Shown in pieces: positions 60,735 to 60,942 of a stretch of 64,000 nucleotides of DNA. The translations under genes and the position numbers were made by a program. Position 1 is the first letter of the stretch. Each line of letters opens with the position of its first letter. The stretch is from assembly GCF_057098645.1 (NCBI RefSeq), contig NZ_CM169472.1. One strand, written 5' to 3'. The notes below the pieces were generated by a model. The model saw only the letters and a list, made by a program, of their open reading frames with translations, made no database searches and had not been told where the DNA came from.

Positions 60735-60942
60735 AGGCCGGGTGGGTAATACCATCCGGCCAAAGATTGTCAAGTAAGTGCGCTTTGTTGATGCCGGATG
60801 CGGCGCGAGCGCCTTATCCGTCCTACAAAACATCGCAAATTCAATAGATTGCAATGCACTTGTAGGCCTGATAAGCGTAGCGCATCAGGCAATTTGGCGT
60901 TTGTCATCAGTCTCAGGCCGGGTGGGTAATACCATCCGGCCA
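60735..60942. repeat. REP/BIME-type palindromic element (two inverted REP units) flanked by two identical 28-bp hairpin units
   Basis: REP-like GCCGGATGCGGCGCGAGCGCCTTATCCG near 60792 and inverted GTAGGCCTGATAAGCGTAGCGCATCAGGC near 60861; AGGCCGGGTGGGTAATACCATCCGGCCA at 60735-60762 and 60915-60942. Confidence 0.7.

Follow-up and report, generated by a model that had tools for sequence, protein, structure and literature searches.

The DNA analyzed here, referred to as the window, is a stretch of 64,000 nucleotides corresponding to positions 2951665-3015664 of E. coli K-12 MG1655. The spacer between the convergent genes yqeA and yqeB contains two exact copies of a 28-mer, AGGCCGGGTGGGTAATACCATCCGGCCA, at 60735-60762 and 60915-60942, both on the + strand and 180 bp apart from start to start. 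A sequence-only reading of the window had noticed these identical units as a direct repeat, and had described them as bracketing an inverted REP pair with an IHF-like core. Both observations hold: the pair consists of a Y unit (60793-60826) and a Z unit (60862-60890), which are separated by the linker GCAAATTCAATAGATTGCA. The RefSeq annotation of MG1655 has no feature in the spacer. The features of the locus, in window coordinates, are the following.

59797-60729, + strand: yqeA (b2874), carbamate-kinase-like, yqeA or arcC-like carbamate kinase in RefSeq, with a TAA stop codon at 60727-60729 (ORF list; RefSeq annotation of MG1655 and other genomes).
60735-60762, + strand: copy 1 of the 28-mer, stem arms 60736-60745 and 60752-60761, directly preceded by TTTAA; the probable left target-site duplicate (alignment with the single-copy allele).
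60763-60914, + strand: a 152-bp element assigned by its sequence to BIME-1 (RIP), missing together with one 28-mer from short alleles; its family aligns over the whole 150-152 bp.
60763-60792, + strand: left end of the element, 'A'-type motif AAGATTGTCAAGTAAGTGCGCTTTGTTGAT, starting with AAGATTGTC; an imperfect inverted repeat of the right end.
60793-60826, + strand: Y-type REP, GCCGGATGCGGCGCGAGCGCCTTATCCGTCCTAC (inverted-repeat arms; family alignment).
60827-60861, + strand: L linker with an IHF-type site, TCAATAGATTG, at 60841-60851; kept in all family copies.
60862-60890, - strand: Z-type REP, inverted relative to the Y REP and reading GTAGGCCTGATAAGCGTAGCGCATCAGGC on the + strand (inverted-repeat arms; family alignment).
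60891-60914, + strand: right end of the element, 'B'-type motif AATTTGGCGTTTGTCATCAGTCTC, finishing with GTTTGTCATCAGTCTC (family alignment).
60915-60942, + strand: copy 2 of the 28-mer, the probable right target-site duplicate, followed by TTTTCATTT.
60950-62575, - strand: yqeB (b2875), XdhC/CoxI family, convergent with yqeA (ORF list; RefSeq annotation).

Five nucleotides lie between the yqeA stop codon and copy 1, and 7 nt separate the end of copy 2 from the stop codon of yqeB. Each 28-mer can form a hairpin whose 10-bp stem (GGCCGGGTGG / CCATCCGGCC) contains one G.T pair and whose loop has 6 nt; the predicted RNA folding energy is -22.6 kcal/mol on the + strand and -16.7 kcal/mol on the - strand. 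The window holds no third copy when up to three mismatches are permitted, and the chance expectation is zero, with no match in 100 shuffles. Stem position 7 of each copy (60742 and 60922) is polymorphic, being G in K-12 and A in ST131. The K-12 G forms a G.U pair on the + strand, corresponding to a C.A mismatch on the - strand, while the ST131 stem is perfect on both strands (-23.2 and -21.4 kcal/mol; locus L003, about position 643). According to these folds, the K-12 variant is predicted to weaken the hairpin only for transcripts running in the yqeB direction. The two direct repeats are also able to pair with each other, because each copy is palindromic. When the full 229-nt RNA (60727-60955, + strand) is folded at minimum energy, the two copies pair arm to arm with each other, clamping the BIME-1 segment between them into one large stem-loop, and the two local hairpins do not form.

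A BIME-1 element has one Y and one Z REP in inverted orientation; the long linker between them is conserved and carries an IHF site (PMC3333891, PMC2817692, PMC1187871). The middle segment of the spacer is, as judged from its sequence, a BIME-1 (RIP/RIB) element: it has one Y and one Z REP in inverted arrangement, as seen in alignment with two other copies and then with 36, and its whole 152 bp align with the BIME-1 copies at ccmH/narP and pitA/uspB. The linker between the REPs is conserved family-wide, and its core, TCAAnnnnTTG, reads as a putative IHF site that matches the consensus WATCAANNNNTTR at 8 of the 9 specified positions. The ends of the BIME-1 consensus, AGATTGTTGACAAAG...CTTTGTCATCAGTCTC, form imperfect inverted repeats, with about 13 of 16 positions agreeing by eye. 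An E. coli genome has BIME-1 matches at 25 places in the median, as fits a dispersed extragenic family found as single units at the 3' ends of transcription units; the yqeA/yqeB copy is the sole REP-bearing site in the window and, like three other copies, sits between convergent genes. Two Rfam families give weak signals here: ES036 (CssrF sRNA) at 60827-60869 on the + strand, with 36.3 bits under a gathering score of 37.6, and naRNA4 at 60787-60823 on the - strand; both families appear to be founded on REP/BIME sequence. The BIME-1, RIP or RIB elements of E. coli were reportedly described by Gilson (1991), Oppenheim (1993), and Boccard and Prentki (1993).

Of 5,426 complete E. coli genomes, 5,166 contain the 28-mer; its 6,813 occurrences are all at this locus, with never more than two in one genome. 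Approximately 3,519 genomes carry one copy and approximately 1,647 carry two. The 152-bp element is found at 95% identity or more in 1,629 + 18 = 1,647 genomes, the same number as have two 28-mers. In many genomes a 901-bp K-12 query is covered by exactly 721 bp, that is, the short alleles are 180 bp shorter. In the alignment, the short allele reads TAA-TTTAA-AGGCCGG[G/A]TGGGTAATACCATCCGGCCA-TTTTCATTTAA: a single GC-rich hairpin, flanked by an A-run and a T-run on opposite sides, in the 40 bp that separate the two stop codons. Adding the 152-bp element and a second 28-mer to the short allele gives the K-12 allele. In Trabulsiella and Pseudocitrobacter, too, yqeA and yqeB are separated by one hairpin, of different sequence. 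The presence of exactly one hairpin in element-free genomes indicates that the two 28-mers are a target-site duplication of the native hairpin. Bidirectional intrinsic terminators occur between convergent genes, and the single hairpin looks like such a terminator for yqeA and yqeB, given its GC-rich stem, its A-run and T-run and its position between the two stop codons. The K-12 arrangement differs in that the hairpin is split in two, each copy having the U-run of the more distant gene only.

Some variation exists among the long alleles themselves, which comprise at least three haplotypes. In about 107 genomes hairpin copy 2 carries a 1-nt deletion (GGCCGGG-GGGTAAT), and one metagenome contig reads GGCCGGGTGAG; the two hairpin copies are therefore not always identical. 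In a more distant enterobacterium (L104-L106, 2434-2540), whose YqeA is 95% identical at a DNA identity of about 82%, the yqeA/yqeB spacer lacks the 28-mer and contains another REP pair, CTTATCGGGCCTACA...TGTAGGTCCGATAAG. Here a further REP type has colonized the spacer independently, and we rejected these contigs as an aid to dating the hairpin.

The duplication of a hairpin is not a peculiarity of this locus. A linker-specific pattern recovered 96 stretches from reference genomes of E. albertii, E. whittamii, three further Escherichia lineages, two divergent 'E. coli' lineages and three Pseudocitrobacter genomes. Each BIME-1 copy was oriented and its ends located; after removal of a redundant locus (L004), 38 well-delimited copies were obtained. 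Locus-specific repeats abut the element ends in 23 of the 38, in both Escherichia and Pseudocitrobacter, and no flank repeat was detected in the other 15. The repeats are 13-29 nt long (median 21, n=23), and in all 20 foldable cases the center of the repeat lies within 1 nt of the dyad of a hairpin. A T-rich stretch follows the right copy in 19 cases and an A-rich stretch precedes the left copy in 13, with one or the other present in 21 of the 23. The duplication thus has no fixed length but tracks the hairpin, and the footprint is atypical for a target-site duplication because its length varies with the hairpin. The element itself, by contrast, is 150-152 bp long in nearly all copies, and the junctions are fixed relative to its ends, within 0-1 nt on the right and usually with a single C on the left. 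At the left junction the hairpin, ending in ...T-C, adjoins AGATTG; at the right the same hairpin directly follows ...CAGTCTC, continuing with A or G, and keeps its T-run. A C|T step, the cleavage motif of the RAYT protein TnpA-REP, is located 2 nt inside each end, not at the junction.

Empty sites show the same relation at three more loci. At pitA/uspB the occupied and empty alleles measure 751 and 578 bp, and the empty site of O157:H7 is one hairpin, GAGCGGGTCAGTTTACTGGCCCGCTT, with a T-run. At ccmH/narP, which is empty in roughly two-thirds of E. coli genomes, the lengths are 801 and 625 bp and the empty site is AGGCCCGATGGTGATGCCATCGGGCT followed by ATTTTT. The lpdA/yacH site is empty in K-12 and occupied in the divergent E. 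coli strain E69. All three sites lie between convergent genes, and each empty site consists of one hairpin. Counting yqeA/yqeB, there are four loci at which the element is directly bordered by the repeat at both ends and one copy of it is present in the empty site. An all-against-all BLAST of the flanks among the collected loci, which had been chosen by element presence, gave no empty sites beyond those known, and showed many BIME-1 insertions to be common to several Escherichia species. In older insertions the stems are kept in both hairpin copies while the loops drift, and one locus (L016) has a compensatory change; these sequence patterns suggest that both copies are under selection. We consider it highly probable that insertion of BIME-1 duplicated the terminator hairpin of yqeA/yqeB, and that this reflects a general rule of BIME-1 insertion, for which we infer symmetric cuts at the feet of the hairpin.

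The sequence-only reading had taken the 28-mers for extra flanking palindromes acting as terminators, and had named a genome-wide search as the check on whether they are a repeat family. Uniqueness to this locus, which it listed as part of its refuting outcome, is what the search showed. On the family view, the 28-mer would be one member of a dispersed palindromic family that accompanies RIP/BIME elements as a terminator module. Hairpins do flank many BIME-1 copies on both sides, in line with this view. The hairpins beside other copies, however, are unrelated, locus-specific sequences, and the 28-mer occurs nowhere else in the 5,426 E. coli genomes. The left and right flanks of the same locus reach a median local score of 14, as opposed to 6 in the cross-locus control, and the same-locus score exceeds the 99th percentile of that control in 22 of 39 copies. 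Taken with the retention of one hairpin in the empty site, locus confinement and flank scores rule out a dispersed-family identity, and we give it practically no credence. The likeness to a RIP/BIME with extra terminator palindromes at its flanks is borne out in part: the end-to-end family alignment identifies a RIP/BIME-1, and a terminator consensus scan marks copy 2 as terminator-like, but the palindromes do not belong to the RIP arrangement, since the empty site keeps one of them.

Several further observations concern the family and its flanking hairpins. At pitA/uspB the left hairpin lacks its 4-nt loop in E. coli and Escherichia sp. MOD1-EC7003 (L007, 355-640; L017, 1-330; L094; L133, 355-440). 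In E. albertii the left loop at this locus is TAAA and the right loop TTTA, its reverse complement, and the empty E. coli allele has an intact TTTA loop. In Escherichia sp. E1V33 (L084, reverse strand, about 3520-3940) three hairpins alternate with two BIME-1 units (hairpin-BIME-hairpin-BIME-hairpin, repeating at about 169 bp), as unequal exchange between the flanking repeats would be expected to produce. Tandem arrays of BIME-1 are also found at L093, L098 and L103, and where E. coli E69 has a single unit, MOD1-EC7003 carries arrays of 3-5 (a gap of 151 vs 849 bp). Copies from Pseudocitrobacter differ from their own consensus at 3-10 positions and those from Escherichia at 6-23, and the family may have been active more recently in Pseudocitrobacter. 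The linker pattern was also encountered in short contigs labelled Bacteroides MAG, Collinsella MAG, Desulfosporosinus and Methylobacterium, where it is most likely contamination with enterobacterial DNA.

The variable length of the duplication, its coverage of one palindrome in each case and its symmetry about the dyad suggest that integration is guided by target structure. Most likely, BIME-1 would integrate at a terminator hairpin through symmetric cuts at both hairpin feet, one per strand, about 0-3 nt outside the GC stem. The hairpin would probably be extruded as a cruciform, or be single-stranded, at the time of cutting, which would bring its two feet together. The element would then be joined between the cuts, and repair synthesis across the gaps would copy the whole hairpin on both sides; the two resulting repeats would permit a later precise loss or a tandem amplification of the unit. 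A more tentative reading, which we put forward as a possibility rather than as the expected answer, is that BIME-1 is a MITE-like element with structure-guided integration at intrinsic-terminator hairpins, the whole hairpin forming the target-site duplication.

The same footprint could have come about by accident of replication or repair at a hairpin, through fork stalling, template switching or break repair copying a BIME-1 from another place, and not through staggered cleavage by a transposase. Hairpins stall replication, and we know of no enzyme that yields a duplication of hairpin length. New BIME-1 copies are identical to no donor, and a coupling of BIME variation to integration has been proposed by Ton-Hoang et al. 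(PMC3333891). Against such an origin stand the very uniform length of the element (150-152 bp) and the fixed junctions, which recur at numerous hairpins that are unrelated and whose flanks share no homology; template switching driven by microhomology is not expected to be so precise. We regard this explanation as improbable.

The direction of the change at yqeA/yqeB may be read in two ways. The insertion could be an older one, with the roughly 3,519 single-hairpin genomes having lost BIME-1 by precise deletion between the 28-mers or by a transposase-like excision, and K-12 retaining the older state within E. coli. With 21 of 151 positions departing from the Escherichia consensus, the element lies near the top of the 6-23 range, and its best paralogues reach 84-90% identity, with none exceeding about 90% in the searched genomes or metagenomes; given this divergence and the lack of a close paralogue, it does not look freshly copied. 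A search for a donor with the whole 152 bp found none in the 5,426 E. coli genomes and plasmids, a distinctive 45-mer proved unique in 1,624 genomes, and all 23 matches of a 39-mer in metagenomes lie at yqeA/yqeB. Loss is also favored by the occurrence of all four combinations of the alleles with an SNP 26 bp away, including about 90 'short + A' genomes, and by the pitA/uspB insertion, which is common to E. albertii and a cryptic-clade Escherichia species, yet is replaced by a clean single hairpin in more than 1,200 E. coli genomes. The latter pattern indicates that precise loss is real in the BIME-1 family, and the abstract of a BIME paper is said to mention 'excisions of a whole BIME-1'.

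Other evidence speaks for a gain within E. coli and against the older insertion. Long alleles are restricted to haplotypes no more than 0.9% from K-12, whereas short alleles reach 2% (for example ST131); the element hardly varies, 1,629 of its 1,647 copies showing 99% identity or more; and the outgroup genera carry one hairpin. No short allele at the two loci tested has the mutations that mark one repeat copy of the long allele: the excision footprints looked for, namely the loop deletion in the left copy at pitA/uspB and the 1-nt deletion in copy 2 at yqeA/yqeB, were both missing from short alleles. An older insertion followed by widespread loss appears to us the less probable history, though a serious one. 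As an aside to the donor search, several of the matching PLSDB 'plasmid' records are 0.7-4.9 Mb long and chromosome-like, among them NZ_CP141089.1 (4.94 Mb), which carries the yqeA/yqeB locus; these are probably mislabelled replicons.

Whichever way the alleles arose, the duplication separates each hairpin copy from one of its flanking tracts. Read on the + strand, copy 1 runs into AAGAUUG and copy 2 into UUUUCAUUU; on the - strand, the tracts after copy 2 and copy 1 are GAGACUG and UUUAAAUU, respectively. In the terminator consensus scan, copy 2 with TTTTCATTT is the sole terminator-like site on the + strand of the region, with 8 GC pairs in its 10-bp stem and the tail ATTTTCATTT. Copy 1 on the - strand, with its folding energy of -16.7 kcal/mol, its C.A mismatch and the tail UUUAAAUU, was not called by the scan. 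From these predictions, copy 1 is likely to be the terminator for yqeB transcripts and copy 2 the terminator for yqeA transcripts. Each transcript would read past the proximal hairpin, which has no U-run, and through BIME-1, to end at the distal copy, where a U-run is retained and termination is predicted. BIME-1 would thereby come to lie inside both 3' untranslated regions.

REPINs and their RAYT (TnpA-REP) proteins are among the closest known systems, since there too an inverted REP doublet is the presumed mobile unit, and the presumed mobilizer is a single-strand HUH enzyme that recognizes hairpins (PMC3116915, PMC2817692, PMC3333891, PMC8266576). The mechanism of REP dissemination has been stated to be unresolved (PMC8266576). 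BIME-1 differs from REPINs in having 16-nt imperfect terminal inverted repeats and a long duplication. Transposition of the IS200/IS605 type leaves no flanking direct repeats (PMC3333891), and the same would be expected of a RAYT-mobilized REPIN, whereas long flanking repeats are the rule for BIME-1. The E. coli RAYT gene, yafM, is itself flanked by Y/Z2 units of the BIME-2 type, not by BIME-1 (PMC2817692). RAYT TnpA-REP is the sole candidate mobilizer in the literature; the lack of flanking repeats in its relatives and the Y/Z2 flanks of its gene count against a simple model of this kind.

Bacterial MITEs such as Correia (CREE) and ERIC resemble BIME-1 in their size of about 150 bp, terminal inverted repeats, fold-back structure and flanking direct repeats, and in their location in 3' regions with co-transcription; Correia elements also have an IHF site (PMC2229807, PMC3184786). 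Terminal inverted repeats are likewise found in the BIME-1 consensus ends. The duplications of MITEs, however, are short, fixed and set by the transposase, as opposed to the 13-29 nt of BIME-1 that track the target hairpin. We know of no parent IS with ends matching those of BIME-1. The nearest known parallel in mode of action is offered by the integration of CRISPR spacers (Cas1-Cas2 with IHF) and by casposons, in which the insert is placed between two copies of a whole palindromic unit of ~28 bp; in CRISPR integration the two strands are attacked at opposite borders of the unit, and an IHF site lies nearby. The duplication of an entire palindromic unit around the insert may be compared with BIME-1 by analogy only, with no membership implied: the BIME-1 insert is 152 bp long and has inverted ends of its own, and its targets are many different terminators, not one leader-proximal repeat.

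Presence or absence of BIME-1 among isolates has been noted before (PMC1187871, with reference to Bachellier 1997). The BIME-1 type, its IHF site, its location at 3' ends and this polymorphism are accordingly known. The hairpin-length duplication around BIME-1 was not found in the full-text literature searched, although the BIME papers of the 1990s may describe it, and in the same literature a footprint of 13-29 nt that scales with a palindrome is described for no bacterial transposable element. The yqeA/yqeB copy is an ordinary member of its family, while the family-wide insertion footprint is possibly undescribed. The structural claim is strong; the mechanism is what we infer from it.

About 1% of the E. 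coli genome consists of REP and BIME sequences, and the hairpin-duplication footprint provides a concrete, testable clue to how they spread. The landing sites of BIME-1 are predicted to be intrinsic terminators, often bidirectional ones between convergent genes, and landing on terminators would explain why the elements are found at the 3' ends of transcription units. Termination would survive the insertion because the distal hairpin copy keeps its U-run, and the flanking hairpin repeats make precise loss and tandem amplification possible. For annotation, an identical pair of hairpins around a REP pair is best taken as one duplicated terminator and not as a new repeat family. The footprint limits the chemistry to one cut per hairpin foot, which is a poor fit to a simple RAYT model of single-strand peeling and pasting. 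If structure-guided integration is true, a REP-type element would for the first time have a target rule, and it would follow that RAYT has a new activity or that another enzyme takes part.
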